Source: a virus (taxonomy: Duplodnaviria; Caudoviricetes). Taken from it: 53,694 nucleotides of DNA. This document shows, piece after piece, positions 10,063 through 51,024 of the stretch. Each line of letters starts with the position of its first letter. The stretch's first letter is position 1. Made by a program: the position numbers and the translations under genes. The stretch spans positions 1 through 53,694 of the IMG/VR virus record IMGVR_UViG_3300026382_000022; one strand, written 5' to 3'. The notes under the pieces are model-generated. The model searched no databases. It had not been told where the DNA came from and saw nothing but the letters and a program-made list of their open reading frames with translations.

Positions 10063-10502
10063 TATAATCCTCCTAACTGTTTATTAAGATTAAACAATAT
10101 TTTATCATTATTGTCTTCTTCACTAATTATAACCTCACATTTTTTAAGCTTATAGACAGTCTTAACTTTAGGTTTAGTGTTAACTTTAAGTTTTAAAGAT
10201 TCTATAATATTTAATAATTCTATTTCTTTATGTTTAGTAACAGAATATTGTGATTTACAAAGTGCTACAGATTTATTAGCATCTCTTTTAATATCATCTA
10301 AAGTTTTTAAATTATCTAAATTCACTTTTGATAATCTTTCAACTTCTCTAGAAGATTTATCTAATTCAGTTTTATACATGTGTATATCTTCATTAAGATT
10401 ATTTATAGTGGATTTTAAATTTATTATATAAATACCAATAAATGCTATTATTAAAGCAACTAAAATAGTTTTCCAATTTTTTAATAAAAATGAAATACCC
10501 AT
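10062..10502 (-). CDS. Inner-membrane spanin (Rz-like)
   Basis: Single N-terminal TM helix followed by a coiled coil with two Cys; abuts the lipoprotein gene. Confidence 0.7.
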   Translation of the reverse strand: MGISFLLKNWKTILVALIIAFIGIYIINLKSTINNLNEDIHMYKTELDKSSREVERLSKVNLDNLKTLDDIKRDANKSVALCKSQYSVTKHKEIELLNIIESLKLKVNTKPKVKTVYKLKKCEVIISEEDNNDKILFNLNKQLGGL

Positions 10503-11194
10503 TATTTATCCTTTAGTACTTTACCAAATTCCCAAGAATATGCTGGTATCTTTTTACCGTCCATAACTATATAACCATGTTCCATCCAACCAAATATTCT
10601 ACCTTTTATAACAAAAGAAAATACTTTAGCAGGATCTAAAGTTTGGTTAAATTTATAATTAAAATTATATGCAGGGTTTCTTAAAGTCCACCAGAACACA
10701 CTCCAGAATTCATATAATGGACATCTAGATCTATTATCACCAAGATCAAATGTATTACCTTTTATATCGGAATTATCAGCATATTCAACTGCTTTTTTAA
10801 GTTTTTCAACTATGAATTCAGGCATCCATTTTTTTCTTTCTTTATTAATAATAGTTAAGTTAAAACCTTTACTATATGTATCCTCATTAGCATCATCATC
10901 TAACAATAGCCAAAATGGTAATAAGAAATAATATTGTAATGTATTAACTTTATTCTTTTTAACAAAACCATCAATATTACCATGTCCGTGATTAAATAAT
11001 ATCCAACCACCTAACACTCTCTTAGGTTCTCTTTCCCAAAGTCTTTTTAATATAATACCATTTTCTAAATGATAGTTATAAATTCTATTTCTAAGATATG
11101 CTCTAAAAGGTATAACTAAGAAAATGAATGGAAAAACTATACGTCTAATAATCACTGTAAATAATACAAATAAATAATATGAATACTTATACAT
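10502..11194 (-). CDS. Membrane-associated phage protein (W-x-x-RNPAYNF family)
   Basis: Hydrophobic N-terminus; WLLLDDD...DTY, FDLGD.R and FWWTLRNPAYNF motifs; paralog at 46666..47328. Confidence 0.55.
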   Translation of the reverse strand: MYKYSYYLFVLFTVIIRRIVFPFIFLVIPFRAYLRNRIYNYHLENGIILKRLWEREPKRVLGGWILFNHGHGNIDGFVKKNKVNTLQYYFLLPFWLLLDDDANEDTYSKGFNLTIINKERKKWMPEFIVEKLKKAVEYADNSDIKGNTFDLGDNRSRCPLYEFWSVFWWTLRNPAYNFNYKFNQTLDPAKVFSFVIKGRIFGWMEHGYIVMDGKKIPAYSWEFGKVLKDK

Positions 11195-12983: not shown

Positions 12984-13012
12984 ACACTACTAGCTATATT
13001 AGCTAGTAGTGT
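12984..13012 (-). terminator. Intrinsic terminator after endolysin
   Basis: ACACTACTAGCT-atatt-AGCTAGTAGTGT stem followed on the minus strand by a T-rich run. Confidence 0.7.
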
Positions 13013-13014
13013 GT

Positions 13015-13644
13015 TTAATACAGATTATCTAATCTATTATTCCAACCTTTTAAATATAAAAGATATTTATCAGGATTAGAAACAACTAAGTCAGCATAAT
13101 ATCTACGCATATTAGAAATAGTTTCAAACTTAAAAACATAAGTCATTAATGGTTTATTAAAATCTAAAGACTCTAAAGCATTTTTAGTTTTAGTACCATA
13201 CTGACCATCTACAGTTGAGAGTTGTTCTTTAGGTATATCTAAAATATTAGATTTTTGTAAATGTATCAATGTTCTTTGTATAGATTTCCAAGTACCTGTT
13301 ATAGAATTAGTATAGAGATTAAAAATCATTATTTGTAACTCTTTAGGAAATAGTTCTAAATGAGCACCATAAAGATACCTATCGTAAAATTCACTTAACA
13401 TGACTTTTATCATAGTTTTATCTAAATGTTGATCTACTAGATCTATTTCTTCTTTAGTCCATTCTGAAGAAGGTGTTTCTATATTTAAAGTAGAAGCAAC
13501 TGTATCTATATAACTAAATATAGCTGCATCACCATGTGCTTTTCTATATACACCACCTGGTGTGGTGATATCATCTTCAGTAGAATTTCTGTGTAAATAT
13601 TCACCTTCTACTTTTAAAATGTAATTCAATAACTCATCTGTCAT
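13015..13644 (-). CDS. Endolysin, GH108-like lysozyme with C-terminal PG_binding_3-like motif
   Basis: N-terminal ILKVEG.Y...T..GGV, 'VDGQYGTKT' and terminal 'YLKGWNNRL'; start MTDEL with AAGGA RBS. Confidence 0.75.
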   Translation of the reverse strand: MTDELLNYILKVEGEYLHRNSTEDDITTPGGVYRKAHGDAAIFSYIDTVASTLNIETPSSEWTKEEIDLVDQHLDKTMIKVMLSEFYDRYLYGAHLELFPKELQIMIFNLYTNSITGTWKSIQRTLIHLQKSNILDIPKEQLSTVDGQYGTKTKNALESLDFNKPLMTYVFKFETISNMRRYYADLVVSNPDKYLLYLKGWNNRLDNLY

Positions 13645-13697
13645 ATAAAATCCTTGTATGGAGTAGTGTGTGACCACTACTCTAAGTTTGTGATATA

Positions 13698-16600
13698 TTA
13701 GCTTAACATATCTAATTGTGTTGTTAATGGTTCAACAACAGTAGTATCTTTTTTAGAAGCTCTTATTTTACGTTGGATAGCTCTACCTTGTTTAGTAAGA
13801 GTATCGTATTTATTAATAAAATAAGTTCCGTCGAAAGTTTTAGAAACAACTGGTAATTTAACAGATTTATCTAAAATGTATGCTTCATCAGGAGCTTCTG
13901 TTAATTCATCAAATGATAAAGTGTATTGATTTAAATCTTTTCCTAATTTAAAAGTATAAACTTTACCAGCACCAGAAGCTGTAGTATCTTCACCATAAGC
14001 ACCTACTAGAGCCACTAGTCCATCACTAGATAATGCTACACCACTACCAAAATAATCACTAGCTTCTATATCACTAGATTGGAACATATTTACTTCAGTC
14101 CAATCATCATCTATAGTAGCTCTTTTATAAGTATATACTTTACCAGCATTAGTAGCTGTAGCATCTTCATTAAAAGCACCTACTAGAGCTACTAAACCAT
14201 CACCAGATAATGCTACTGATATACCAAAATAATCATCAGCTTCTACATCACTAGATTGGAACATATTTACTTCAGTCCAGTCATCATCTATACTATCTCT
14301 TTTATATGTATAAACTTTACCAGCATTAGATGCTGTGGTGTCTTCATATAAAGCACCTACTAAAGCCGTTAAACCATCACTAGATAATGCTACTGATATA
14401 CCAAAATTATCACCTTCTTCTATATCACTAGATTGGAACATATTGACTTCAGTCCAGTCATCATCTATAGTAGCTCTTTTATAAGTATATACTTTACCAG
14501 CACCATCAGCAGTAGTATCTTCAGCATGGGCACCTACTAAAGCTACTAGTCCATCACTAGATAACGCTACTGATGTACCAAATTTATCATCAGCTTCTAT
14601 ATCACTAGATTGGAACATATTAACTTCAGTCCAGTTATCATCTATAGTATCTCTTTTATAAGTATATACTTTACCAGCATTACCAACTGTAGTATCTTCA
14701 TAATATGCACCCACTAGTGCTACTAATCCATCACCAGATAGTGCTACCGATCTACCAAAATAATCATTAGCTTCTATATCACTAGATTGGAACATATTTA
14801 CTTCAGTCCAGTCATCATCTATAGTATCTCTTTTATAAGTATATACCTTACCAGCATCAGAAGCTGTGGTATCTTCTTGATAAGCACCTACTAAAGCTAC
14901 TAGTCCATCACCAGATAATGCTGTACTGATACCAAAATAATCACTAGCCTCTATATCACTAGATTGGAAACTATTGATTTCTTTAGGATGTTCTAAATCT
15001 AAATCATACACTATTTCAGATGTAACATTATTCACTGTAACTTCAGAACCATCTAAAATAACTTTATCATCTACCATTATAGGTAAATCTTTTTCAGTTT
15101 TACCAACATATTCAGTTGTTGTAGAACTTACTTTTTCTAATTCTACATTACCTTTATAATAAGCATCTATGATATTAGAAGTTAAATTATGGTTAGGTAG
15201 CATCATTTTATATTTAGTAACACCATTATCATCAATAGTAGTAATATCACCAGGCATTGCTTCTACACTATTAACTATTAATAATGAATTTTTAAGTGGA
15301 TTAACAGATACTAAATAAGAACCATCAGAAACTGTTAATGGATCTAGTTCAATATGTTCTTCTGGTAATGTTAACATTTTAGAAGGAGTATCTTCTAAAC
15401 TAATAGAAACTTCTACTTCATCACCATAGTAAAATGATACTGGTAATGTTGATACTGGAGTTTGAAGTTCCATTTTGAAACCATTTAATAGCTTATAAGT
15501 ATAAACCTTTCCCGCATTAGATACTGTAGTATCTTCATTAAAAGCACCTACTAGAGCTACTAACCCATCACTAGATAATGCTACTGATCTACCAAATCTA
15601 TCATCAGCTTCTATATCACTAGATTGGAACATATTTACTTCAGTCCAGTCATCATCTATAGTAGCTCTTTTATAAGTATATACCTTACCAGCATCAGTAG
15701 CTGTAGTATCTTCTCTTGTAGCACCTACTAGTACTACTAGACCATCACCAGATAATGCTACTGATACACCAAAATAATCACTAGCCTCTATATCACTAGA
15801 TTGGAAACTATTTACTTCAGTCCAGTCATCATCTATAGTAGCTCTCTTATAAGTATAAACTTTACCTGCATTAGAAGCTGTAGTGTCTTCAAGAAATGCG
15901 CCTACTAGAGCTACCAGACCATCATCGGATAATGCTACTGATACACCAAAATTATCATTCTCTCCCACATCACTAGATTGGAACATATTTACTTCAGTCC
16001 AATCATCATCTATAGTAACTCTTTTATAAGTATAAACTTTACCTGCACCAGGAGCGGTAGTATCTTCAGCATGGGTACCTACTAGAGCAACTAACCCATC
16101 ACTAGATAACGCTACTGATACACCAAAATAATCACCTTCTTCTATATCACTAGATTGAAAACTATTTACTTCAGTCCAGTTATCGTCTATAGTAGCTCTT
16201 TTATAAGTATAAACTTTACCAGCATTAGAAGCTGTAGTATCTTCATTACGAGCACCTACTATAGCCACTAGACCATCGCCAGATAATGCTACTGACCCGC
16301 CAAAATAGTCACCTTCTTCTACATCACTAGATTGAAAACTATTTACTTCAGTCCAGTTATCATCTATAGTAGCTCTTTTATAAGTATATACCTTACCAGC
16401 ATTAGAAGCTGTAGTGTCTTCATAATGAGCACCTACTAATGCTACTAACCCATCATTAGATAACGCTACTGATATACCAAAATGATCACCTTCTTCTACA
16501 TCACTAGATTGGAAACTATTGATTTCATCAGCTATTAAAATTGGTTCAGTATTTTCTACGATATTTCCTAATTTAAAAGTATAAACTTTACCAGCACCAG

Positions 16601-17882
16601 AAGCTGTAGTATCTTCACCATAAGCACCTACTAGAGCCACTAGTCCATCACTAGATAATGCTACACCATTACCAAAATAATCATCAGCTTCTACATCACT
16701 AGATTGGAACATATTTACTTCAGTCCAGTCATCATCTATACTATCTCTTTTATATGTATAAACTTTACCAGCATCAGTAGCTGTAGTATCTTTTTTACGT
16801 GCACCTACTAAAACCATTAAACCATCACCAGATAATGCTACTGATCTACCAAAATAATCACCTTCTTCTATATCACTAGATTGGAACATATTTACTTCAG
16901 TCCAGTCATCATCTATAGTATCTCTTTTATAAGTATAGACTTTTCCAGCATTAGTAGCTATGGTATCTTCAGTTTCAGCACCTACTAAAGCCACTAACCC
17001 ATCACCAGATAATGCTACTGATCTACCAAAATGATCACCTTCTTCTATATCACTAGATTGGAACATATTGACTTCAGTCCAGTCATCATCTATAGTAGCT
17101 CTTTTATAAGTATAGACTTTTCCAGCATTAGAAGCTGTAGTGTCTTCATCACGTGCACCTACTAGAGCCACTAATCCATTACTAGATAACGCTACCCCAG
17201 CACCAAATAAATCACTTTCTTCCACATCACTAGATTGAAAACTATTTACTTCAGTCCAGTCATCATCTATAGTAGCTCTCTTATAAGTATATACTTTACC
17301 AGCAGCAGTGGCTGTGGTGTTTTCAGAATCTGCACCCACTAGAGCTACTAACCCGTTACCAGATAATGCTACTGAACTACCAAAATGATCATCAGTTTCT
17401 ATATCACTAGATTGGAACATATTTACTTCAGTCCAGTCATCATCTATAGTAGATCTTTTATAAGTATATACTTTACCAGCATCAGAAGCTGTAGTGTCTT
17501 CAGCGTAAGCGCCTACTAGAGCAACTAATCCATCACCAGATAATGCTATTGCTGTACCAAAATGATCATTTTCTTGTATATCACTAGATTGGAACATATT
17601 GATTTCATCAGGTGTATCTAGTAATACTAATTTTTCATTAAATGCTTTACTAACAATATTAGACTCAACAGCACTACCATCAACACTTAATACTTTCTCA
17701 CCAGCTTTAGGCATTCTACCTAGAGTTTTAACTTCTATTTTATCATCTTTAGAACCAACTACTTCTATTACATTAGTAGCATACTTTAACTCTGTTTCTT
17801 TTGCAGCAACCCAATCTTTTTCACCACTATCTTGTTCTGTAATATTCTCTATATATACAGCATTATCTTTTATAGAAATCAT
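13698..17882 (-). CDS. Large FG-GAP repeat beta-propeller protein, putative tail fibre/receptor-binding adhesin
   Basis: 18 copies of a 59-aa unit (D.FG.SVALS.DG..ALVGA..ED.....AGKVY.YKR.....W) in three blocks of six. Confidence 0.85.
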   Translation of the reverse strand: MISIKDNAVYIENITEQDSGEKDWVAAKETELKYATNVIEVVGSKDDKIEVKTLGRMPKAGEKVLSVDGSAVESNIVSKAFNEKLVLLDTPDEINMFQSSDIQENDHFGTAIALSGDGLVALVGAYAEDTTASDAGKVYTYKRSTIDDDWTEVNMFQSSDIETDDHFGSSVALSGNGLVALVGADSENTTATAAGKVYTYKRATIDDDWTEVNSFQSSDVEESDLFGAGVALSSNGLVALVGARDEDTTASNAGKVYTYKRATIDDDWTEVNMFQSSDIEEGDHFGRSVALSGDGLVALVGAETEDTIATNAGKVYTYKRDTIDDDWTEVNMFQSSDIEEGDYFGRSVALSGDGLMVLVGARKKDTTATDAGKVYTYKRDSIDDDWTEVNMFQSSDVEADDYFGNGVALSSDGLVALVGAYGEDTTASGAGKVYTFKLGNIVENTEPILIADEINSFQSSDVEEGDHFGISVALSNDGLVALVGAHYEDTTASNAGKVYTYKRATIDDNWTEVNSFQSSDVEEGDYFGGSVALSGDGLVAIVGARNEDTTASNAGKVYTYKRATIDDNWTEVNSFQSSDIEEGDYFGVSVALSSDGLVALVGTHAEDTTAPGAGKVYTYKRVTIDDDWTEVNMFQSSDVGENDNFGVSVALSDDGLVALVGAFLEDTTASNAGKVYTYKRATIDDDWTEVNSFQSSDIEASDYFGVSVALSGDGLVVLVGATREDTTATDAGKVYTYKRATIDDDWTEVNMFQSSDIEADDRFGRSVALSSDGLVALVGAFNEDTTVSNAGKVYTYKLLNGFKMELQTPVSTLPVSFYYGDEVEVSISLEDTPSKMLTLPEEHIELDPLTVSDGSYLVSVNPLKNSLLIVNSVEAMPGDITTIDDNGVTKYKMMLPNHNLTSNIIDAYYKGNVELEKVSSTTTEYVGKTEKDLPIMVDDKVILDGSEVTVNNVTSEIVYDLDLEHPKEINSFQSSDIEASDYFGISTALSGDGLVALVGAYQEDTTASDAGKVYTYKRDTIDDDWTEVNMFQSSDIEANDYFGRSVALSGDGLVALVGAYYEDTTVGNAGKVYTYKRDTIDDNWTEVNMFQSSDIEADDKFGTSVALSSDGLVALVGAHAEDTTADGAGKVYTYKRATIDDDWTEVNMFQSSDIEEGDNFGISVALSSDGLTALVGALYEDTTASNAGKVYTYKRDSIDDDWTEVNMFQSSDVEADDYFGISVALSGDGLVALVGAFNEDATATNAGKVYTYKRATIDDDWTEVNMFQSSDIEASDYFGSGVALSSDGLVALVGAYGEDTTASGAGKVYTFKLGKDLNQYTLSFDELTEAPDEAYILDKSVKLPVVSKTFDGTYFINKYDTLTKQGRAIQRKIRASKKDTTVVEPLTTQLDMLS
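13945..17606 (-). repeat. 177-bp tandem coding repeats, 3 blocks x 6 units
   Basis: TCACTAGATTG(G/A)AA recurs at 177-bp spacing (e.g. 14071, 14248); blocks approx. 13945-14980, 15490-16527, 16570-17606. Confidence 0.95.
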
Positions 17883-17899
17883 TTATATCTTCCTTATTA

Positions 17900-18472
17900 T
17901 TAAAATTTAAAATTTGTACTAAAATATTTATTAGTATTAAAATCTGCATTACTTAAAGCAGTATCACCAATGATAGGTACATAAACTATATTTAAATTAT
18001 ATGTAACTAAATTACTTCTAACTTTACCAACAACACTACCATAAATAGTTATTGTATCTGTAGTGTCAACACCATCACTAATATCTGGTGCTCTATATTT
18101 AAAAGTACCATTAGTATTATTTATATTACTTATAGTGCCCTTATCTACAGTTATCTCATAAACTGTACCAGGTACATGATTAGTTATATTAACACTAATT
18201 TCTTCATTTTCATTTATACCAGTTGGTATATCTAAAACAGGACTAGGTGCAATAGGTAATAAATCTAAAATATTATCTACAGTAACCAACTCATTAGCAG
18301 GAACACCACCAACTTTTAAAGTATTGACAGCCTGTTGTACTAGTAATCCTACAGGAGTGCCGTCTATCAATGTAGCCATTCCATTAGAAGCTATTAAAAC
18401 TTCTCCAAAACTTAATTTTCTATTATTATAAACTAAATATCCATCTCTACTTAGTCTCCAAGTATCAGCCAT
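17900..18472 (-). CDS. Tail fibre-associated protein, paralog of 18491..19099
   Basis: Shared DG.LV, TLKVGGV.A....T and D.AL.N.D...NK.....F.F/Y motifs. Confidence 0.55.
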   Translation of the reverse strand: MADTWRLSRDGYLVYNNRKLSFGEVLIASNGMATLIDGTPVGLLVQQAVNTLKVGGVPANELVTVDNILDLLPIAPSPVLDIPTGINENEEISVNITNHVPGTVYEITVDKGTISNINNTNGTFKYRAPDISDGVDTTDTITIYGSVVGKVRSNLVTYNLNIVYVPIIGDTALSNADFNTNKYFSTNFKF

Positions 18473-18490
18473 AATTATTCCTTATATTTT

Positions 18491-19099
18491 TTAATATTCA
18501 AATCCATCATTATAATCTTTATTAGCTTTATAATCAGGATTAACTAATGCTTGATCTGCTCTAACATTATCAGTATATATGTTTATATTTTTACTAAATG
18601 TATCAGATCTAATACAGCCTTTATCTATAGCTATAACATTTAAAGTAGTTATTACATCAGAATCTAATTCTGGTGTAACTAATTTTATTTCACCAGCAGC
18701 AGTAATACTAACATCACCCACTACACTAGTAGCTTGGTATAAAAATTCACTATTATAATTTTCTATAGTACCAACTAATGTATCACCACCATTTACACCA
18801 TCACCAATAGTAATTATTGGTGTTTCAGTAACTGGTATAGTGTCTCTATAATTTAATTTAGTTAAAACATTTTCTGCTAAAACTCCACCTACTTTAAGTG
18901 TATCATCAGCTAGTAATGCTCTTTGAGCTATCTCGGTTTCATCATTAAAGATATCTCCTAATAGATTAGCAATATCTATAATATTATTATATCCATCTAT
19001 TAGTTTACCGTCATTATATCTTATAAATTCACCTAACTTTACTTTGGTATCTTGAAAAACAAGATTACCATCTTTATCAACTCTCATCTTTACAGACAT
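18491..19099 (-). CDS. Tail fibre-associated protein, paralog of 17900..18472
   Basis: Same shared motifs; AAGGAG RBS; first gene of the fibre operon. Confidence 0.55.
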   Translation of the reverse strand: MSVKMRVDKDGNLVFQDTKVKLGEFIRYNDGKLIDGYNNIIDIANLLGDIFNDETEIAQRALLADDTLKVGGVLAENVLTKLNYRDTIPVTETPIITIGDGVNGGDTLVGTIENYNSEFLYQATSVVGDVSITAAGEIKLVTPELDSDVITTLNVIAIDKGCIRSDTFSKNINIYTDNVRADQALVNPDYKANKDYNDGFEY

Positions 19100-19165
19100 A
19101 TAATCTCCTTGTGGATTACTCTATTACTACTTACATAACAGTATTTCAAGAAAAAGAAAAAAGAC

Positions 19166-19189
19166 CACAGTTAGCATAAGCTAACTATG
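19166..19189 (-). terminator. Intrinsic terminator after helicase
   Basis: Minus strand CATAGTTAGC-ttat-GCTAACTGTG followed by GTCTTTTTCTTTTT. Confidence 0.65.
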
Positions 19190-19194
19190 ATCTG

Positions 19195-36297: not shown

Positions 36298-37042
36298 TTT
36301 TTAGTTCCTCTCTTTTAGCTTCTATTTTAGCAAGAACTTCTTCTTTATTTTCTGTTGTAGATAGAGATTTTTTAAGTTCTTTAATTTCTCTTTTAAGTTG
36401 TGCTTTTTTTAACATAGACTCACGCTCTTCCTCAGATTGTGTTTCTTTCCAATGTTTATCTTTTTCTTGCATTTCTAACACCTTAGCAAGTTGTTGGTCT
36501 GGATTAGATTTTAAATCTTTTCTACCATTTAATTTAGTTTCTCTAATATGTTTACCAATATCTCCTGTAAAGTTTTTAATTTTCTCAATATCAAAATCAT
36601 CACCTTCCGCAACCCATTCATCGTATAAAGGATGGTCAGTCATTTTAATATTTTTAACATTATTATCTATAGCATACATAACCATTTGATTATAGATACC
36701 AATAGCTGGTGGATTAAGTTTAAAACCAAATCTTTTAGATTTATCAGGAGTAAGACAACTTTCAGGATGATCATATTGTGTTACAAAATTATATTTAGAA
36801 AAACTAGCTATAGCTAGCTCTTCGCCATCTGGTTTAACATCATCTAATGATTTTTTAAATTCACTAACAACACCAGCATTACATTCTTGACACAACATAT
36901 TTATTTTCTTAGAGTCACCCTCACCCATCATCTCTTTTAACGTTAGATTAGGTAATTCATCATTAGTGATAACCATATCTTCATCAACACCAAATAATGC
37001 TTCTTCTAATTCTCTACATTTGTTACAAACATATACATTCAT
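36290..37042 (-). CDS. Hypothetical protein with CxxC...CxxC zinc motif and C-terminal coiled coil
   Basis: CNKC and CQEC; Glu/Lys-rich tail; coupled to topA. Confidence 0.6.
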   Translation of the reverse strand: MNVYVCNKCRELEEALFGVDEDMVITNDELPNLTLKEMMGEGDSKKINMLCQECNAGVVSEFKKSLDDVKPDGEELAIASFSKYNFVTQYDHPESCLTPDKSKRFGFKLNPPAIGIYNQMVMYAIDNNVKNIKMTDHPLYDEWVAEGDDFDIEKIKNFTGDIGKHIRETKLNGRKDLKSNPDQQLAKVLEMQEKDKHWKETQSEEERESMLKKAQLKREIKELKKSLSTTENKEEVLAKIEAKREELKNA

Positions 37043-39363
37043 TATTTTTTCCTTTTAAATTTTTTATTTTTACCACTAGGAGGATTTTCTGCTATAAGAG
37101 CTTTTACTTCTTCAGTAGTTAACTTTTTAATAGCTTCTGTATCCTCTTTAAGTTTTTTAGGTAACTTATAATTTTTCTTACCAACTTTCATGTAGACACC
37201 ATATCTACCATTGATAAATTCAGCACCAGTTTTTTCGTCAGTGTGTATCTGGGCTTTTCTACGTTCTTCCTGTATTTGCTCTATAACTTCTTTAGCTCTA
37301 TCAAAAGTTATAGTATATGGATCATCTTCTTTTAAACCATAATACTTACCATTATGTGTTAACATAGGACCGAATCTACCAATAGTAACATTCACAACAT
37401 AACCATCTATCTCACCTAATTTTTTAGGTAATTCTAATAGATGTAAAGCATATTTTAAATCTACATCATCTTTAGAAACATCTTTAGGTACAGATGCTAC
37501 TCTTGGTTTGTGCTTTTTATCCTCAGGATCTTTCTCTCCTAATTGAACATAAGCTCCATACGCACCTGTTTTATAATAGATTGTTTTACCAGTAGCAGGA
37601 TCTTTACCTAATTCTTTTTCTTCAGAATAGTTAAATCTATCACCATCAGCTTTTTCTTCTATGTTTTTCATAAAAGGAATATAAAACTCTCTGATAACTT
37701 CTTGCCATTTTATTTTACCTTCATTTATAGCATCTAATTTCTCTTCCATATTAGCTGTGAATTTAACATCAATAATATCAGGGAAATTTTCTACTAAATA
37801 ATCTCTTACAGCTTTACCTATAACTGTTGGTTCTAATCTTTTATCTTTAGTTTTAATTACATATTCACGCATTAGAATAGTTGCGATCATACTAGCATAT
37901 GTAGATGGTCTACCAACACCTTCTGATTCTAGTTTTTTAACTAAAGAAGCTTCAGTATATCTAGCTGGTGGTTTAGTAAATAACTGTTCAGCTATAAGTT
38001 CAGTATCTTTAAAAACAGTATTAACAGGAACATCTGGTAAGAATTTCTCTTTATCATCTAGGGTAGCTTCTGGATCATCACTACCTTCAGTATAAGCTTT
38101 CATAAATCCAGGAAAAAGTATCTTAGTACCTTTAGCTACAAACTCATACTGTTTATTACTACCTCCATTGATATAATATGTAGTAGTAGCTACTTTAGCT
38201 TTAGCCATTTGAGTAGCCATAGTTCTTTTCCAAATTAAACTATAAAGTTTAAATTCATGTGGATCTAAATAACCTTTAACTTTTGATGGTTTAAGACTCA
38301 TGTTAGTTACACGGATAGCTTCATGAGCTTCTTGACTACCTTTACTTTTATTAGTATATTTTCTAGGATAATCTAAAGCATACTCTGAACCATATTCGGA
38401 TAAGATAACTTCCTTAGCTGCATCTGTAGCTACTTTAGAGAGATTTAAACTATCAGTACGCATATAAGTAATTAACCCACCAGAGTGGTTAGGAACTACC
38501 ATAGAACCTTCATAAAGTTTTTGTGCTACACTCATAGTTTGTTTAACACTAAAACCTAATTTTCTAGAAGCTTCTTGTTGTAATGTTGAAGTTGTAAATG
38601 GTGGAGGAGGTGTTCTAAAAGATTCTTTTTCTTCTATATTAACTAACACATAATCGTTTTTATCACAATCATTTTTAATAGCATTAGCTTCTTCTTCATT
38701 AGAAATTTTTATCTTTTTACCATTAGCTTTATTAAACTCTGCTCTAAATTTAGGATTAGATAAAATATCTAATTTAAGTTTCCAGTACTCTTCTGGTTTA
38801 AAAGCTTCAATCTCTCTTTCTCTATCAACAACTATACGTAATGCAACAGATTGTGTTCTACCTGCTGATAATCCATACTTTATCTTTTTCCATAATAGAG
38901 GAGAAAGTTTATATCCTAATAATCTATCTAAGATACGTCTAGCTTGTTGTGCATTAACTTTATTCATATCTACATCTCTAGGATTAGCTACAGCATGTAA
39001 GATAGCTGGTTTAGTTATTTCATGGAAAACTATACGTTTAAAAGTAACATCTTTTCTTTTTAAAACTTCTCTAAGGTGCCAGGCAATAGCTTCACCCTCT
39101 GAGTCATCATCACTAGCTAACCAAATTGTTGTACCTGGTCCTACTAGTTGTTTAAGTTCTTTAACAACTCTTCTTTTATCTGGATATACTTCATAGTTAG
39201 GTTGGAAATTATTCTCTGGATCAAAACCTAAATTATTTTTAGGTAAATCTCTAATATGTCCAAAACTAGCTTTTACTACATACCCATTACCAAGTATCTT
39301 AGTTATAGTTTTTGTTTTAGCTGGTGATTCAACTATAACTAAATTATCTACATATCTACTCAT
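37042..39363 (-). CDS. topA: DNA topoisomerase I (type IA)
   Basis: LVIVESPAK, ASFGHIRDL, D.D.EGEAI, RR.LDR..GY, SAGR.QS, LITYMRTDS (catalytic Tyr), QEAHEAIR, GRPSTY; C-terminal G.YG.Y repeats. Confidence 0.97.
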   Translation of the reverse strand: MSRYVDNLVIVESPAKTKTITKILGNGYVVKASFGHIRDLPKNNLGFDPENNFQPNYEVYPDKRRVVKELKQLVGPGTTIWLASDDDSEGEAIAWHLREVLKRKDVTFKRIVFHEITKPAILHAVANPRDVDMNKVNAQQARRILDRLLGYKLSPLLWKKIKYGLSAGRTQSVALRIVVDREREIEAFKPEEYWKLKLDILSNPKFRAEFNKANGKKIKISNEEEANAIKNDCDKNDYVLVNIEEKESFRTPPPPFTTSTLQQEASRKLGFSVKQTMSVAQKLYEGSMVVPNHSGGLITYMRTDSLNLSKVATDAAKEVILSEYGSEYALDYPRKYTNKSKGSQEAHEAIRVTNMSLKPSKVKGYLDPHEFKLYSLIWKRTMATQMAKAKVATTTYYINGGSNKQYEFVAKGTKILFPGFMKAYTEGSDDPEATLDDKEKFLPDVPVNTVFKDTELIAEQLFTKPPARYTEASLVKKLESEGVGRPSTYASMIATILMREYVIKTKDKRLEPTVIGKAVRDYLVENFPDIIDVKFTANMEEKLDAINEGKIKWQEVIREFYIPFMKNIEEKADGDRFNYSEEKELGKDPATGKTIYYKTGAYGAYVQLGEKDPEDKKHKPRVASVPKDVSKDDVDLKYALHLLELPKKLGEIDGYVVNVTIGRFGPMLTHNGKYYGLKEDDPYTITFDRAKEVIEQIQEERRKAQIHTDEKTGAEFINGRYGVYMKVGKKNYKLPKKLKEDTEAIKKLTTEEVKALIAENPPSGKNKKFKRKK

Positions 39364-45761: not shown

Positions 45762-46721
45762 ATGATGAATAACCCATTAGCTATACCATACAATACTACT
45801 TATGGTAGTTTAATAAATAATAAAAAGACTATTGATGCTATTATGAAATATCTAATAGAGAATGATACTAATTTAAATTATGAGTACATTAACTCTAGTG
45901 AAACTAAATTAGTTATCATTACAGGTAAGAATGAAAAAGAACAATCTTTACCTATATGGGAATTCCCTTTAGTATTTAAAGATATTAAAGATAACACTAT
46001 TATAGCAGTAGATGTCAGAATGTATGTAGATGTTAAAAAGAATCCATCTTTTTTAAATCTTTCAGAGATAGTAAAAGATAAATCAGCATTTACATTTAAA
46101 ATATTGAATGCTTTATTGGTAGGAGATATGTTATCAGAGTCTTATGATAAATTAATACCTACAGAACAACATGTAGTTACAGCAGCTACATTATGGTTAT
46201 CAGAATCTATAAATTCTATAGTTATGCTTAACCCTGTAGAGAAAGTTACTTTAGAAGTAATCTTAAGTGCATATTTTTATAAATTCTATCTTAATAGTCC
46301 TTTAGATAAATCTACAGAAGAAGTTATCAGAATGAAAGTTTCTAAAACTAAACTTTCTTTACCTGTTAATAATGCATTCATTACTGATGTATTTACTAAA
46401 TTAGATATGTCTATGTCTAATGTTAATGAATTAGTATCTAATATTAAAAATGTACTAAATAGTGATAAAGGTAATATGTTAACATCTGATGTAATAGTAT
46501 CTGCTGTATCTAATAGCTGGTATGGTCCTGGTACTAATGAAACTACATTAGTATCTTTAGAAAACTTACCAACATTGATTACCTTAGTATATGCTGCTTT
46601 AAGTGATAAAACATATAAGAGAAGTAGAATATCTACTATCCTAGATAAATATAAGAGAAAAATAGATGACAAAAAATTTATTAAATATATGGAGATCTAT
46701 CTTTCAGAGAGTATCTTTTAA
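45762..46721 (+). CDS. Conserved phiKZ-like hypothetical protein (gp62-like by position)
   Basis: PY.TT, P....P, VDVR, W.G and LE..PT...LVY.A motifs recalled from the Chimalliviridae core. Confidence 0.55.
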   Translation: MMNNPLAIPYNTTYGSLINNKKTIDAIMKYLIENDTNLNYEYINSSETKLVIITGKNEKEQSLPIWEFPLVFKDIKDNTIIAVDVRMYVDVKKNPSFLNLSEIVKDKSAFTFKILNALLVGDMLSESYDKLIPTEQHVVTAATLWLSESINSIVMLNPVEKVTLEVILSAYFYKFYLNSPLDKSTEEVIRMKVSKTKLSLPVNNAFITDVFTKLDMSMSNVNELVSNIKNVLNSDKGNMLTSDVIVSAVSNSWYGPGTNETTLVSLENLPTLITLVYAALSDKTYKRSRISTILDKYKRKIDDKKFIKYMEIYLSESIF

Positions 46722-47328
46722 AAACAAGTACGTTAAATTCATTTTAAGGGTGCTTATCATCGAGATAGGGATGTTGGTTAGGATAATGGTCTATTGGATG
46801 ATAAAAGTCCATAGAGCGCATGCTAGACATATTGTTTATAACTATATGTTACAAAATAATGTTTTTAATTATTATCTAAAAAAATATAATTTAAAAATAA
46901 CTGAAAAAAATAATGATGGGTATGTAGAATATGAAGAAGTTAGTTACTTAGATTATTTGTTATATAAATATTTAGTATGGATATGGTTAGACGATACAGC
47001 TGAATGTGATACATATCATGAAGTCATGTTATCAGATATTCTAAGTGATAGAAAATTAGTTAATAAATATGCTGATAGTAATATCATAGGACCTAGTTAT
47101 AATATAGGTGATTTAAGAATATCTGAACCTATGGAATGTTTAAAGTTAGAATTTAAAAATATTATAGAATATGAAAATTTTAATTTAACACATGAAATAT
47201 TCTATACCACTAATATACATGATGTTTTTAGTTTGAATATATTCGGTATAACTATAGGGTATAAATATATAAATACTGTTGATAAAAAAGATGTATATAA
47301 ATTAATAATAGAAAAAAATAAGGAGTAA
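46666..47328 (+). CDS. Diverged paralog of membrane protein 10502..11194 (start uncertain)
   Basis: R...R..IYNY.L.N, WIWLDD.A..DTY, ADS.I.G....IGD.R and VFS..I.G..IG shared. Confidence 0.6.
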   Translation: MTKNLLNIWRSIFQRVSFKNKYVKFILRVLIIEIGMLVRIMVYWMIKVHRAHARHIVYNYMLQNNVFNYYLKKYNLKITEKNNDGYVEYEEVSYLDYLLYKYLVWIWLDDTAECDTYHEVMLSDILSDRKLVNKYADSNIIGPSYNIGDLRISEPMECLKLEFKNIIEYENFNLTHEIFYTTNIHDVFSLNIFGITIGYKYINTVDKKDVYKLIIEKNKE

Positions 47329-47797: not shown

Positions 47798-48343
47798 CTA
47801 ATCATTTAATCCACAATGCAATAGCTCATATAGATAATCACCATAATATGATCCGTCACACCAGTCATATTTTTCATCAGAGACATCTTCTTCATTAGTA
47901 AGATTATCTAAGTTATAATCTTCAATACAATTTTTATATTCAACTAGTGACTCTTTAATATTTTTGAATTCTAAATATATATCTGATGTCTCTTTAATAT
48001 CTACTTCCCTAGTTATATCTTCGTTATATAAGAAAATACTACCACTTTTAATATATGGTTTTAAAAGCAATATTAGATTTTCTATATCATTATCTTTATT
48101 CTTGTTACCAATACACACATCTAGTAGGACATCATTAACATTACTTATATCTATATTTTTTTTAAGATTATCTGTGAAAGTATTATCTAAGAAATCACAT
48201 CTAGAATTTTTAATCATACCATCTGGTAGGTTTAAAGTATCTAATTTCTCTTCTTTAACTTGTTTTAACCATTTAACTATATCTGGTCTATCACCAAGAT
48301 CTAATTTAAGATCTTTAAATCTACACTCATAATATGTACTCAT
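47798..48343 (-). CDS. Acidic hypothetical protein coupled to the nuclease gene
   Basis: ATGA overlap with 48340..51024; AAAGGA RBS. Confidence 0.6.
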   Translation of the reverse strand: MSTYYECRFKDLKLDLGDRPDIVKWLKQVKEEKLDTLNLPDGMIKNSRCDFLDNTFTDNLKKNIDISNVNDVLLDVCIGNKNKDNDIENLILLLKPYIKSGSIFLYNEDITREVDIKETSDIYLEFKNIKESLVEYKNCIEDYNLDNLTNEEDVSDEKYDWCDGSYYGDYLYELLHCGLND

Positions 48344-51024
48344 TTTTCATCCTTTTTATATATTAGATATTTTTCAACATCTTTTAATTTAGTATCTCCT
48401 GGCAAATTTTCTCCTCTACAAAGTTCTAAGAAGTCTTTATACCAATTGTTACCAACTCTGTATTTAAAATATTTAGATAATCTAAATAATAGGTATTCTT
48501 CTAACATATCAAATTTATCATATTTAATACGTATTAAATAATAACCATGTTGTTTAGCTAAATTATTCTTTAATTCATCACGATCCTTACTTGCTTGTAA
48601 TTCTTTATCACCACCCCATTTTTTTATAGATTTAAAATGTTGCTCACCATCATATTCTATTAAAATATTGAGTTCAGGTAGAAAGAAATCAAAACGAAGT
48701 CTTTTATTATCAGCTTCAGGCATCACATATTCTGGTATATTTTTAATATCGTTATCTTGTAGAAATCTATTAATTTTAATTATAGCTTCTGATGAAGAAC
48801 ATATTGGACACCCGTGTCCATCTAGGTGATCATTAGGTCTTTGTTTAAAATCACCATGTTCTTTACATGTAATAATAACTGGGGCTTTACTGTTATAGTA
48901 ATCAACCTTATCATAATTATATCTATTACCATGTATTACTTTAGCTTTCTTAACAAATTCTTCTGTATCAGAGACATGTAATCTAGAACATTTAGAACAT
49001 CCATGTTTTGATCTAATATGATGTTCTGGTGTTTGTTGGAATTTACCATGTAATGGACAAATTATAGTAGCATGTGAAGTATATCCAATATAGTTCATTT
49101 TACTATAGTCAAATTTATTACCAAATTTTTCTTTAGCTCTTTTTATGAACTCTTTTTCATCTATAGTCCTAACTGTGCTACATTTTAAACAACCACCACT
49201 AACTGTTGCTGCTAAATGGTTATTTGGTATTACAGAGAAATCACCATGCTCTTTACATGTAACCATAATAGGTGTGGTCATTTTTTTAAAATTTACTTTA
49301 TCATAACTAAATCTATCACTATGTACTTCTCTAGCTCGTTCTACGAATTCATCTTTAGTTATTCTAGTTGCCTCCATAGCACATTTCTTACACCCTCTAG
49401 CTTTGGCTCTGACGTGTTCACCAGCTATTTGCCAAAATGAACCATGTGTTGGACAAATGATTTCTACTTTAGTAGCTTTATTAATATAGTTAACTTTACT
49501 GTAATCGTATTTATCACCATGTAGTAATCTAGCTTTCGCAACCCATACATCTTTGCTACTAGTTTGTTTAGAGTCTGTTAATTCTCTACTACATTTAGGA
49601 CAACCTGTTTCTGATGTTAAATGGGATTTAGGTAGCATAGTTACTTCACCATGTTTAGGACAATCAAAAGTGATTTTTTTATACATACCAGCATATACTA
49701 CTTTGCTGTAATCGAATTTATCACCATGTTTAGCTTTAGCTTTTTCTATAAACTCTGAAGTACTTGTTTTAGGTATTCGTCTATTCTCTATAGAACATCT
49801 TGGACACCCAGTACCAGACAAATGTGTTGTTGTGTTTTGTTCGAATATACCATGTTTAGGGCATATGATTTTAACTTTATTGTTAGTACCACTACCTTTA
49901 TAATCCACTAATGAATAATCATATTTATCACCATGTTTAAATCTAGCTTTTTCTATAAATTCATTAGTATTTATTTTAGGCTTATGTACTTTTTCAACGC
50001 CACATTTAGGACAACCATATCCATATAAATGTGAATCTGCTCGTTGTTTAAAAATACCATGTTCAGAACATACTATATCTGTATAATCAGAACCAATAGT
50101 ATATACTACTTTGCTATAATCATATTTGTCACCATGTTTAGCTCTAGCTCTCTTTATGAATTCTTCAGTAGTAAGTTTTTTAGAATTACTCATATTTTCA
50201 ATAGCACATTGCTTGCATCCTTTATTACGTAAATGATTATGTGGCTTCTGTTCATACTCACCATGTTTTTTACATATAAGAGTAACTGGTGTATTACTAT
50301 CTACAAAATTTACTTTACTATAATCTACACTATCACCATACAGTTCTTTTGCCTTAGCTAAGAATATCTCTTTAGTTAAAGTGAAAGGTTTTTTTAATAC
50401 TTCTTTCTGGTGCTCAATACTGCACTTAGGACACCCAGTTACACTATTCACATGTGATACTGGTAACATTTGAAATTCACCATGTATAGGGCATATAATG
50501 TTCACTGGTTTATCTTTAGTAAAATAAATAACTTTATTATAATCATATTTGTCACCATGTTTAGCTTTAGCTTTTTCTATCCATCTATTTGTTTTAAATT
50601 CAGTTGGTATAGTATTTTTACCTATAGCACATTTAGGACACCCCATACCAGACATATGGTTACGCGCTAGTTGTTGAAAATCTCCATGTACAGGACAACC
50701 AATAGTAATATTTTCAGATCCTATAGTGTAATTAGATTTACTGTAGTCATATTTATCACCATGTACTTCTTTAGATTTTTTTATAAAATCAGCAGTTGTT
50801 AGCTTACGTGCATTTACTCTTTTTTCAATTGAACATTTAGGACACCCAGATCCTTCATAATGTGCTTTAGCTTGTTGCTGAAAATCTCCGTGTATTGGAC
50901 ATGTTATTGTTATAGGTTTTTTACTACCTTTATATATAGATTTAGCATAACTATATTTACCATCATGTGTTTTTCTAGATTTAATAATCCATTCCTCAGT
51001 TGTCATTTTTTTATTAGCCATCAC
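48340..51024 (-). CDS. Free-standing putative homing endonuclease: 11 DUF723-like C-x2-HG...C-x2-C zinc modules plus C-terminal DUF559/Vsr-like nuclease
   Basis: 11 copies of F..K....HGDKYDYS...Y......I.CP.HG.F.Q....H....GCP.C; C-terminus RFDFFLPELNILIEYDGEQHF...RD..KN..A......LIRI.Y. Confidence 0.85.
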   Translation of the reverse strand: MMANKKMTTEEWIIKSRKTHDGKYSYAKSIYKGSKKPITITCPIHGDFQQQAKAHYEGSGCPKCSIEKRVNARKLTTADFIKKSKEVHGDKYDYSKSNYTIGSENITIGCPVHGDFQQLARNHMSGMGCPKCAIGKNTIPTEFKTNRWIEKAKAKHGDKYDYNKVIYFTKDKPVNIICPIHGEFQMLPVSHVNSVTGCPKCSIEHQKEVLKKPFTLTKEIFLAKAKELYGDSVDYSKVNFVDSNTPVTLICKKHGEYEQKPHNHLRNKGCKQCAIENMSNSKKLTTEEFIKRARAKHGDKYDYSKVVYTIGSDYTDIVCSEHGIFKQRADSHLYGYGCPKCGVEKVHKPKINTNEFIEKARFKHGDKYDYSLVDYKGSGTNNKVKIICPKHGIFEQNTTTHLSGTGCPRCSIENRRIPKTSTSEFIEKAKAKHGDKFDYSKVVYAGMYKKITFDCPKHGEVTMLPKSHLTSETGCPKCSRELTDSKQTSSKDVWVAKARLLHGDKYDYSKVNYINKATKVEIICPTHGSFWQIAGEHVRAKARGCKKCAMEATRITKDEFVERAREVHSDRFSYDKVNFKKMTTPIMVTCKEHGDFSVIPNNHLAATVSGGCLKCSTVRTIDEKEFIKRAKEKFGNKFDYSKMNYIGYTSHATIICPLHGKFQQTPEHHIRSKHGCSKCSRLHVSDTEEFVKKAKVIHGNRYNYDKVDYYNSKAPVIITCKEHGDFKQRPNDHLDGHGCPICSSSEAIIKINRFLQDNDIKNIPEYVMPEADNKRLRFDFFLPELNILIEYDGEQHFKSIKKWGGDKELQASKDRDELKNNLAKQHGYYLIRIKYDKFDMLEEYLLFRLSKYFKYRVGNNWYKDFLELCRGENLPGDTKLKDVEKYLIYKKDEK

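Follow-up and report, generated by a model that had tools for sequence, protein, structure and literature searches.

The WD40 repeats in the Podospora anserina proteins HET-D and HET-E (HNWD) are reported to share very high internal identity and to group by genome rather than by position, being exchanged within and between paralogous loci. Four codons in each of these repeats are described as under positive diversifying selection, and they lie in pairs in the d-a loop and the b-c turn of the interaction face (Paoletti, Saupe and Clave 2007, PMC1805685). Among phages, gp131 of phiKZ is described as a tail fibre carrying one seven-bladed C-terminal propeller at its distal end, with a proposed role in host recognition (PMC13250141). 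Integrin propellers carry FG in strand 1 and GAP in strand 2 of the blade, and an N-terminal strand runs ahead of their first blade (Chouhan et al. 2011, PMC3192720). Finally, propellers with internal identity above 60% are reported to be widespread, including members of the FG-GAP/alpha-integrin lineage in archaea and bacteria, and are interpreted as recent amplifications (PMC9218822); the main text of that report does not use the terms 'phage', 'hypervariable' or 'variable positions'.

Here we compare these systems with P0001, a protein encoded in a window of 53,694 nucleotides (the whole stretch of DNA analysed), from a Caudoviricetes virus record estimated to be 22% complete. P0001 matches the Pfam family FG-GAP_2 (PF14312) over 18 stretches with an E-value of 4.2e-197 and 638.8 bits against a cut-off of 23, which places it in the family, and all 18 matches of a PF14312 search within its own genome lay above the cut-off. 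Tandem Repeats Finder reported arrays of period 177 at 13947-14969 and 15493-17607. With the repeat register set by anchoring on an invariant motif, the protein resolves into 18 repeats with a spacing of exactly 59 residues, arranged as three blocks of six, in agreement with the sequence-only reading, which had described near-identical 59-residue repeats differing at few positions and exactly six of them per block. Because the linker between propellers 1 and 2 is so short, there is no space for a seventh blade. The longer insert between propellers 2 and 3 aligns in its first half with the propeller 1/2 insert of relatives and in its second half with their 2/3 insert. The N-terminal domain, whose motif is kept in relatives, closes with a strand preceding the first FG strand of propeller 1.

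Table 1. Positions of the P0001 gene, its parts and its neighbours in the window
Feature	Position	Strand	Remark
CDS, FG-GAP_2 triple-propeller protein P0001	13698..17882	-	1394 aa, stop codon included
N-terminal domain, aa 1-93	17604..17882	-	consensus of family alignment
Propeller 1, repeats 1-6, aa 94-447	16542..17603	-	repeat anchoring
Blade 6, closes propeller 1	16564..16728	-	near-identical to blade 18
Linker of propellers 1 and 2, 6 aa, aa 448-453	16524..16541	-	repeat anchoring
Propeller 2, repeats 7-12, aa 454-807	15462..16523	-	block folded by AF2
Non-repeat insert, 161 aa, aa 808-968	14979..15461	-	alignment with relatives
Propeller 3, repeats 13-18, aa 969-1322	13917..14978	-	repeat anchoring
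Blade 18, closes propeller 3	13939..14103	-	partner copy of blade 6
C-terminal domain, aa 1323-1394	13701..13916	-	motif kept in relatives
190-aa ORF, upstream of the P0001 gene	17900..18472	-	homologous domain fused in relatives
202-aa ORF, second upstream	18491..19099	-	paralogue of the 190-aa ORF (28% identity, E 3e-19)
220-aa ORF, downstream, lysin-like	13015..13677	-	two weak matches
Terminator-like hairpin, 14-bp stem and T run	19162..19193	-	between helicase gene and 202-aa ORF
Terminator-like hairpin, 13-bp stem	12984..13012	-	just past 220-aa ORF

Variation among the repeats is concentrated in a few columns. Within columns 1-47, 22 of the 47 are invariant across the 18 repeats, and four (14, 17, 33 and 34) account for 33% of the 1575 pairwise amino-acid differences; adding columns 11, 12, 23, 40 and 41 brings the share to 65%. 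In motif terms, the four columns are the positions on either side of FG and the pair that follows VGA. The listed di-residues after VGA/VGT were recovered in all 18 repeats (YA DS RD ET RK YG / HY RN HA FL TR FN / YQ YY HA LY FN YG), and the residue preceding FG is indeed H, L, Y, N, R or K. Columns 12, 40 and 41 vary more weakly, and variability per blade is thus graded across columns and extends beyond the di-residue alone. The closing blade of each block diverges from the consensus from about column 48. Half of the 72 residues at the four columns are Tyr, Arg, His or Phe (17, 9, 7 and 3, respectively). In 232 other FG-GAP_2 proteins (3684 repeats), variability likewise peaks at these four columns, indicating that the pattern is family-wide rather than specific to P0001.

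We examined where these columns lie in a predicted fold. AF2 folded block 2 as a closed six-bladed propeller of 24 strands (pLDDT 91.3, pTM 0.90), with strands at columns 15-21, 27-32, 44-49 and 58-4 in all six repeats. Together with the 6-residue linker, this single folded block supports the earlier proposal of three independent six-bladed propellers. The best matches by Foldseek and VIA-align were integrin alpha-subunits and bacterial integrin-type propellers (Foldseek E 9.5e-16, TMq 0.57-0.63; VIA-align to integrin alpha4, Z 28.9, rmsd 5.3 A over 330 residues). The model superposed more tightly on the six-bladed chains NHL and PknD than on integrin alpha4, at 2.7-3.4 A (Lin41 NHL, Z 27.6, 3.3 A over 270; PknD, Z 25.9, 2.7 A over 250/254). 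That seven blades are the norm was also correct: repeat runs in 241 FG-GAP_2 proteins favour 7 (135 times, with 14 found 51 times and 6 found 88 times), and six blades rather than the usual seven are a mark of the phage clade of P0001. In the strand order of the model, loops at columns 5-14 and 33-43 alternate with loops at 22-26 and 50-57, and by this alternation one blade end holds columns 12, 14, 33, 34, 40 and 41 together with column 17, where strand 1 begins. The four variable columns are thereby predicted to lie at the FG/GA(P) end of each blade, so that the single variable face that had been suggested is upheld by modelled strand topology, not by measured geometry.

Next, we asked how substitutions are distributed between the scaffold and the variable columns. 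Pairwise Nei-Gojobori comparison of the 18 repeats gave a scaffold dS of 0.447 and dN of 0.068, and a dN of 1.07 at the four hypervariable columns and 1.47 at columns 33/34. Counted from a star consensus, the four columns carry 0.449 non-synonymous changes per site; the synonymous figure for the whole gene is 0.202 per site, which makes a ratio of 2.2 (Poisson 4e-10), and column 34 alone has a ratio of 3.3 (P 3e-7). As the four columns were picked post hoc, the Poisson test is inflated, and a 47-fold correction leaves only column 34 clearly significant. The star phylogeny is a simplification and dN/dS was obtained by crude counting; the AT-biased codon use (GC about 28-34%) may lower the synonymous rate and thereby lift the ratio. 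With these qualifications, dN/dS across repeats exceeds 1 at the variable columns, as a ligand-facing surface had led the sequence-only reading to expect.

The scaffold shows a different history. In a tree of 50 repeats, built with the variable columns left out and covering one other genome (the syntenic relative L009), all 18 P0001 repeats fell on one side of a branch with a single change, a value as low as which was reached in none of 500 shuffles, and the repeats of the two L009 paralogues intermixed. Scaffold dS was 0.447 within the gene compared with 0.937 against the L009 orthologue (0.866 for positional pairs), and scaffold dN was 0.068 compared with 0.292. The layout of P0001 recurs in the orthologue: N- and C-terminal domains, inserts and three blocks of six blades. 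The separate grouping of the 18 repeats points to a scaffold evolving in concert and to one face under diversifying selection. Blades 6 and 18 share 116 of 117 scaffold nucleotides, ranking first of 153 pairs, and their 3 codon differences within columns 1-47 (columns 9, 12 and 17) are all non-synonymous. Hypervariable residues are shared with the orthologue at 9 of 60 matching blade positions against an all-pair background of 169/1080, and a per-blade code conserved by position is not borne out.

By analogy, the closest known parallel to P0001 is the Podospora HET-D/HET-E WD40 system and not the TAL effectors. Both sets of repeats group by genome (for P0001, in comparison with one other genome), and both have four codons per repeat with a non-synonymous excess (for P0001, at columns chosen post hoc). 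The pairs would also fall alike, since in the modelled strand order columns 14/17 sit where the loop into strand 1 ends and columns 33/34 where the loop after strand 2 begins. However, the fungal blades are WD40 and number seven to eight whereas those of P0001 are FG-GAP_2 and number six; HET-D/HET-E are described as fused to NACHT in a fungal self/non-self system whereas P0001 is a phage protein; and the RIP mutagenesis described on the fungal side is without counterpart here. Neither WD40 nor NACHT is among the six Pfam families listed for P0001, and the tie is one of functional analogy, not of membership.

Likeness to integrin propellers lies in the type of blade. F15-G16 is invariant in 18 of 18 repeats and opens the strand at columns 15-21, G31 and A32 (18/18 and 17/18) end the second strand, and an N-terminal strand precedes the first blade as reported for integrins. 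A profile of the block aligned with the FG-GAP repeats of integrin alpha-L (E 4.4e-7), with column 33 opposite the Pro of GAP. By contrast, that Pro is found at column 33 in 0 of 18 repeats, a hypervariable residue taking its place; columns 22-26 read S-[GSND]-[DN]-G-L in place of a DxDxDG Ca2+ loop; and there are six blades rather than seven. Internal identity far above 60% aligns P0001 with the highly repetitive propellers, from which, as these are described, it differs in that its repeats group by genome despite a kept multi-domain layout. Like phiKZ as described, the phage of P0001 is of the jumbo type and has multisubunit RNA polymerases (the stretch encodes a terminase and two RNAP beta-like subunits) and paralogous genes, which in phiKZ are fibre genes. 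The single seven-bladed propeller of gp131 differs from three six-bladed FG-GAP_2 propellers in series, whose virion location is putative. The sequence of P0001 showed no similarity to gp131 or its paralogues: no Pseudomonas phage was among the 16 records retrieved with P0001 by tblastn from 50,697 phage records at E up to 1e-5.

Could the pattern have arisen by recent amplification from a single blade, with folding keeping the scaffold and the four columns drifting without ligand-driven selection? The reported fresh amplifications in the same lineage, the fact that these columns also vary most in the 232 other proteins and the place of P0001 in internal scaffold identity, no higher than 6th among 175 proteins, speak for it. 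Drift, however, predicts a ratio of at most 1, in contrast to the 2.2-fold and 3.3-fold excesses observed. Independent re-amplification to an identical 6+6+6 layout in L009, yet with a separate group of blades, is also less parsimonious than homogenisation, and near-invariant codons 30-32 and 35-36 flank saturated codons 33-34, a juxtaposition that, under homogenisation, requires selection against overwriting; we therefore consider amplification with drift unlikely. Hypermutation by a diversity-generating retroelement would fit the sharp localisation of the variation, but the reverse transcriptase family PF00078 had 0 matches in the window (22% of the genome). Moreover, differences at the variable codons of columns 33/34 involve every codon position and all base types rather than template adenines, and thousands of repeats in unrelated genomes vary at the variable columns too, making this origin extremely improbable. 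TAL effector repeats form an open solenoid that reads one DNA base per repeat through two adjacent hypervariable residues. The sequence-only reading had loosely likened P0001 to them, and a modular code, with one unit of a repetitive ligand recognised per blade through its di-residue, would account for near-identical tandem repeats with two adjacent hypervariable residues. Yet the repeats are predicted to close as a ring that has no linear register in which to read a polymer, so that residues of each blade would converge on one composite surface around the axis. At least four residues vary per blade rather than two, di-residues are not kept between positional blades of orthologues there is no homology, and none of the six listed Pfam families is a TAL effector family. 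A TALE-like code is accordingly very unlikely.

Other alternatives concern where the protein acts. P0001 may be a non-virion protein with a role within the infected cell, such as a scaffold that captures host or phage proteins on its variable faces. Consistent with this, its gene lies amid genes for RNA polymerase subunits, a helicase, a nuclease and a topoisomerase, and about 10 kb around it held no recognisable tail or baseplate gene. A known virion protein was matched by none of the neighbouring ORFs tested, with 0 matches for the 190-aa and 426-aa ORFs in the 50,697 phage records, and the N-terminus of P0001, judged by eye, is not signal peptide-like. Against it, the two hairpins in Table 1 (7 terminator-like sites were found against 1.4 expected from shuffles) bracket a four-gene unit and set it apart from the helicase and the downstream genes, and the unit ends in a lysin-like gene (phrog_315 endolysin, E 2e-9; PG_binding_3, E 7.6e-4, under the Pfam cut-off). 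Within the unit, the 190-aa ORF is homologous to a domain fused at the N-terminus of the FG-GAP proteins P0008 (38% identity to aa 14-194, E 5e-34) and P0002 (E 4e-12) of relatives, and L009 possesses two such pairs, each of a small ORF and an FG-GAP gene, in the same synteny. Residues ~75-168 of the 190-aa ORF are predicted by AF2 to form an Ig-like beta-sandwich weakly resembling phage tail/fibre domains (E about 1e-4 to 1e-5). Moreover, the block-2 model matched collagen-repeat proteins of Mimivirus (E 1.4e-36), an FG-GAP protein of an uncultured phage (TMq 0.83) and a protein of cyanophage S-TIM5 (E 2.9e-24) annotated as 'virion structural protein' in its record; viral FG-GAP propellers also occur fused to collagen-like fibre repeats. 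We judge an intracellular role improbable. A virion decoration that attaches the particle to biofilm, mineral-associated polymers or similar surfaces in the environment, rather than serving as the primary receptor binder, would suit the Ig-like partner domain, the three different faces on one chain and the hydrothermal-vent label of the metagenome runs (two runs from two studies, with 0.72 and 0.66 of sampled words). Strong diversification and only 9/60 positional matches are more in keeping with an arms race against a variable host surface than with binding to a generic polymer, and such decoration seems quite doubtful.

On balance, P0001 is probably a triple propeller of a phiKZ-like jumbo phage in which the scaffold is homogenised and four residues per blade are diversified to give a host-binding surface on the virion. 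In this phage, from a vent-type metagenome, recombination among the 18 blade units would homogenise the blades, holding the four strands and most loops of each near constant, and would also copy entire blades from propeller to propeller, while diversifying selection would keep the four residues different. These residues would lie in the loop into the innermost strand and the loop out of the second strand, at the FG/GAP end, opposite to the end that bears the Ca2+ loops in integrins. With four at one end of each blade, about 24 fast-evolving residues would ring each propeller axis and together form one asymmetric binding surface, so that three propellers would present three different surfaces. 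The variable residues are probably exposed and bind ligand. For P0001 itself the most likely site is the virion, where it would form a fibre or decoration that binds host-surface structures, the putative partner being the small upstream-encoded Ig-like protein; this placement draws on analogy and on the annotations of repeat proteins 25-34% identical to it among the 16 tblastn records.

The near-copy of blades 6 and 18 and the intermixed repeats of the two L009 paralogues hint, more tentatively, that the 18 blades (35-36 in relatives with two paralogues) might serve as a cassette pool, in which recombination, inside one propeller or gene or from one to another, shuffles blades together with the four specificity residues that each bears. 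We hold this to be a possibility of rather low probability. If true, the phage would re-assort its binding faces combinatorially, as a recombination-driven diversifier of host range, and the pool would be to viruses what the HNWD repertoire is to the fungus and would offer a natural scaffold for modular binders.

P0001, the FG-GAP protein of the window, is encoded by a single open reading frame (ORF) with 18 matches to Pfam FG-GAP_2 (E 4.2e-197). Its repeats are spaced exactly 59 residues apart and fall into three blocks of six. When columns of the repeat unit were compared, 22 of columns 1-47 were found to be invariant among all 18 copies, and many scaffold codons are identical in DNA throughout. 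Columns 14, 17, 33 and 34 account for 33% of the 1575 pairwise differences within columns 1-47, and nine columns account for 65%, with an entropy of 2.0-3.3 bits at the four hypervariable columns versus 0-1 bit at most other columns. The pattern is genuine and far exceeds chance, and the variable di-residues listed by the sequence-only reading proved correct throughout when checked against the repeats. The 72 hypervariable residues include 17 Tyr, 9 Arg, 7 His and 3 Phe. The Pro of 'GAP' is missing in all 18 repeats, in which no Ca2+ loop motif was found. As to layout, the two halves of the 161-aa insert align with different inserts of relatives, one after propeller 1 and the other after propeller 2 (compared with gene 7998-12155 of L009, the locus of a syntenic relative). 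Together with the 6-aa gap between propellers 1 and 2, this suggests a rearrangement in which one propeller was shifted relative to the spacer domains.

Features of the P0001 gene and of other ORFs in the window (nucleotide positions unless marked aa)
Feature	Position	Strand	Basis or remark
P0001, single ORF, 1394 aa	13698-17882	-	ORF call
N-terminal region, 93 aa	before the repeats	-	
Repeat block 1	aa 94-447	-	repeat anchoring
Linker, 6 aa	between blocks 1 and 2	-	
Repeat block 2	aa 454-807	-	repeat anchoring
Insert, 161 aa	14979-15461, between blocks 2 and 3	-	
Repeat block 3	aa 969-1322	-	repeat anchoring
C-terminal region, 72 aa	after the repeats	-	
190-aa ORF	17900-18472	-	upstream of P0001 gene
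202-aa ORF	18491-19099	-	paralogue of 190-aa ORF
220-aa ORF	13015-13677	-	directly downstream of P0001 gene; weak phrog_315 endolysin match (E 2e-9); PG_binding_3 E 7.6e-4, below cut-off
Terminator-like hairpin, 14-bp stem	19162-19193	-	
Terminator-like hairpin, 13-bp stem	12984-13012	-	
894-aa ORF	48340-51024	-	
phrog_9573 ORF	10502-11194	-	
phrog_9573 ORF	46666-47328	+	
773-aa ORF	37042-39363	-	

The fold was modelled by running AlphaFold2 on block 2 (repeats 7-12) with a 12-row alignment. The resulting model (pLDDT 91.3, pTM 0.90) has 24 strands, located at columns 15-21, 27-32, 44-49 and 58-4 in every repeat. Searching the PDB with this model by Foldseek gave integrin alpha propellers as the best matches (E ~1e-15, TMq 0.57-0.63), and integrin alpha4 was also at the top of an exhaustive VIA-align comparison (Z 28.9, rmsd 5.3 A over 330). 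In the latter, six-bladed NHL and PknD propellers superposed more tightly (Z 25.9-27.6, rmsd 2.7-3.4 A). Among PDB sequences, a single-sequence phmmer search with one block (E up to 0.01) matched no solved structure; integrin alpha chains were the only ones recovered with a family profile, alpha-L at E 4.4e-7 and with column 33 opposite the Pro of 'GAP'. Because the best matches are of integrin type and the NHL and PknD propellers fit more tightly, the model points to integrin-type blades arranged in a six-bladed ring, and a linker of only 6 residues leaves no room for a seventh blade between blocks 1 and 2. The initial proposal of six-bladed propellers is thus supported by strand number, linker length and superposition. 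Repeat runs in 241 related proteins, counted with a custom repeat HMM that may miss degenerate blades, peak at 7 repeats (135 runs) and at 14 (51 runs); the 88 runs of 6 are concentrated in the phage clade nearest P0001. FG-GAP_2 has been listed among families modelled without a known structure (PMC8078820), and prokaryotic FG-GAP repeat proteins have been described as lacking experimentally resolved structures (10.1101/2025.10.05.680483).

In the AlphaFold2 strand order, blade loops alternate between the two ends of the propeller, loops 5-14 and 33-43 sharing one end and loops 22-26 and 50-57 the opposite one. Columns 12, 14, 33, 34, 40 and 41 fall in loops 5-14 and 33-43, and column 17 comes third in the strand that loop 5-14 leads into; the mildly variable columns 23 and 51 sit at the opposite end. 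In integrins, ligands bind at the FG/GAP end, the 'top' of the propeller. In integrin-type blades the FG motif belongs to strand 1 and the GAP motif to strand 2 (Chouhan et al., PMC3192720). Strand topology therefore supports a shared blade end for the variable residues in the predicted fold, and with six blades about 24 hypervariable residues would surround the axis of each propeller.

We then compared substitution rates between column sets by pairwise Nei-Gojobori counts among the P0001 repeats. A dS of 0.379 and a dN of 1.07 were obtained for the four hypervariable columns, and the values for columns 33 and 34 were 0.321 and 1.47, versus a dS of 0.447 and a dN of 0.068 for the scaffold. When changes from the consensus were counted under an assumed star tree, the four columns, chosen after looking, showed 0.449 non-synonymous changes per site versus 0.202 synonymous changes per site gene-wide (ratio 2.2, Poisson 4e-10), and column 34 alone gave a ratio of 3.3 (P 3e-7), both being ratios whose synonymous rate may be depressed by AT-biased codon use. 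The claim that the variable residues lie on one face and evolve fast is supported by this non-synonymous excess and by the strand topology of the predicted fold.

Comparison with L009, located on a 75-kb IMG/VR contig, addresses how the scaffold is kept constant. Its genes are arranged in the order RNAP, helicase, 212-aa ORF, FG-GAP protein of 1385 aa, 129-aa ORF, 211-aa ORF, FG-GAP protein of 1610 aa and 229-aa ORF, and the 1385-aa protein is 46% identical to P0001 over its full length. In a tree of 50 repeats built with the variable columns removed (3 of 53 rows being dropped as too gappy), one branch separates all 18 window repeats from the rest, and 0 of 500 shuffles gave a value as low. 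Repeats of the two FG-GAP genes of L009 (7998-12155 and 13470-18302), which share one repeat scaffold, intermix in this tree, indicating that homogenisation also occurs between paralogous genes of one genome. Scaffold divergence from the L009 orthologue (dS 0.937 and dN 0.292 over all pairs; 0.866 and 0.288 over positional pairs) exceeds that within the window gene, and the hypervariable columns are saturated in every comparison, both within the gene and against the orthologue. Blades 6 and 18 of P0001 arose by recent copying, with agreement at 116 of 117 scaffold nucleotides, and all 3 of their codon differences are non-synonymous. Positional blades of the orthologues share hypervariable residues only at chance level (9 of 60, versus 169 of 1080 over all pairs), and the suggested TALE-like code of each blade is not supported.

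These results resemble the pattern found in the HET-D/HET-E WD40 repeats of Podospora, for which concerted evolution within and between loci has been reported, together with four positively selected codons per repeat, one pair in the d-a loop and another in the b-c turn of the interaction face (PMC1805685). The closest mechanism for P0001 would be concerted evolution combined with diversifying selection, on the model of HET-E. Alternatively, the repeats could represent a fresh amplification from a single blade, as described for repetitive propellers (PMC9218822), which would also yield a uniform scaffold; this is less parsimonious because the multi-domain layout is conserved between P0001 and L009, the one other genome compared.

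The family search returned 60,502 representative proteins matching a P0001 block at E up to 1e-3. The same four columns also have the highest entropy (3.6-3.9 bits) in 3684 repeats of 232 other proteins. Among 175 proteins with at least 6 well-aligned repeats, taken as best matches to the P0001 query and so biased to regular repeats, median identity was 62% for the scaffold and 13% for the four columns; P0001, with 84% and 14.5%, ranks sixth. Judged from these alignments, the variable-column pattern is not unique to P0001. A description of this protein type was not found in the FG-GAP phage, propeller, tail-fibre and virion literature covered, most subscription journals lying outside that coverage.

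The window, an IMG/VR virus record of 53,694 bases (GC ~24-34%, estimated completeness 22%), carries a terminase large subunit gene and two genes for RNA-polymerase beta-like subunits, most closely related to those of phiKZ-like jumbo phages (30-33% identity), indicating that it derives from part of an uncultured jumbo phage genome. When 12 kb of the window was compared with phage records by megablast, nothing matched; an exact-pattern scan of viral contigs with the P0001 protein alone found none, and a scan with the family alignment found one locus, L009. In two runs of separate studies, each labelled hydrothermal-vent metagenome, 0.72 and 0.66 of the words sampled from the P0001 gene are present, and either run may represent the sample of origin. 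Runs X1 and X2 agree fully in the gene flanks and in the non-repeat insert (0 other letters; records 1, 4, 8, 9, 13, 14, 16). Short-read contigs among those of four runs end within the repeats, and 142 of 296 X1 pieces fit two places, so that differences and joints in the repeat region are indistinguishable from cross-mapping. RNA-library contigs (X6) partly cover the gene at 85-95% likeness, which shows neither transcription nor identity. Elsewhere in the window, the internally repetitive 894-aa ORF has 5 stretches that match HNH and homing-endonuclease PHROGs and 11 that match phrog_4605. The two phrog_9573 ORFs (function unknown) are paralogous; the minus-strand copy shares 51% identity with an ORF in the syntenic position of L009 and 38-45% with hypothetical proteins from Vibrio phages, ICP1 included. 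The 773-aa ORF (phrog_13226, unnamed in PHROGs) is 43-46% identical to phage genes annotated as DNA topoisomerase I.

Whether P0001 belongs to the virion was approached through its neighbours. The 190-aa ORF domain is fused to the N-terminus of the propeller proteins of relatives (P0008, E 5e-34; P0002, E 4e-12), and by these fusions its product may pair with the propeller protein. Residues ~75-168 of this product are predicted by AlphaFold2 to form a beta-sandwich, which weakly resembles Big_2/PKD domains from tail and fibre proteins of phages (BFVD). For the upstream ORFs, ESM Atlas gave sub-threshold Ig/PKD-like leads only, and Pfam and NCBIfam gave nothing for the 190-aa and 202-aa ORFs. 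L009 has a separate small ORF (212 and 211 aa) for each FG-GAP gene, and the window has two small ORFs, both putative partners, and one FG-GAP gene, so a further propeller gene may be encoded beyond the fragment or may have disappeared. The 220-aa ORF could encode an endolysin or virion-associated lysin. Two strong hairpins bracket the 202-aa ORF, the 190-aa ORF, the FG-GAP gene and this lysin-like ORF, in a region with 7 terminator-like sites in 6.4 kb versus 1.4 expected. Matches to the propeller model include collagen-repeat proteins of giant viruses, the FG-GAP protein of an uncultured phage and one cyanophage protein that carries the annotation 'virion structural protein', and in phiKZ a tail fibre is capped by a propeller (PMC13250141). 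Against a virion location, the genes around P0001 are those of replication and transcription, and the neighbours tested against phage records, the 190-aa and 426-aa ORFs, had no match there, to a known virion protein or otherwise. From the fusions, the beta-sandwich, the lysin-ended unit, the model matches and the phiKZ parallel, we infer that P0001 is probably a virion protein.

FG-GAP_2 propellers are very abundant, yet solved structures are reached only via a profile to integrin alpha chains. P0001 is a very clean case of a constant FG-GAP_2 scaffold in which each blade carries four fast-evolving positions at one predicted end, from a giant-phage clade that uses the six-bladed propeller in triplicate. 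If its faces bind host surface molecules, the clade would provide a marker from which arms races between phage and host could be read in uncultured vent communities, a viral test case of concerted evolution plus diversifying selection, and a compact natural scaffold for engineered binders.
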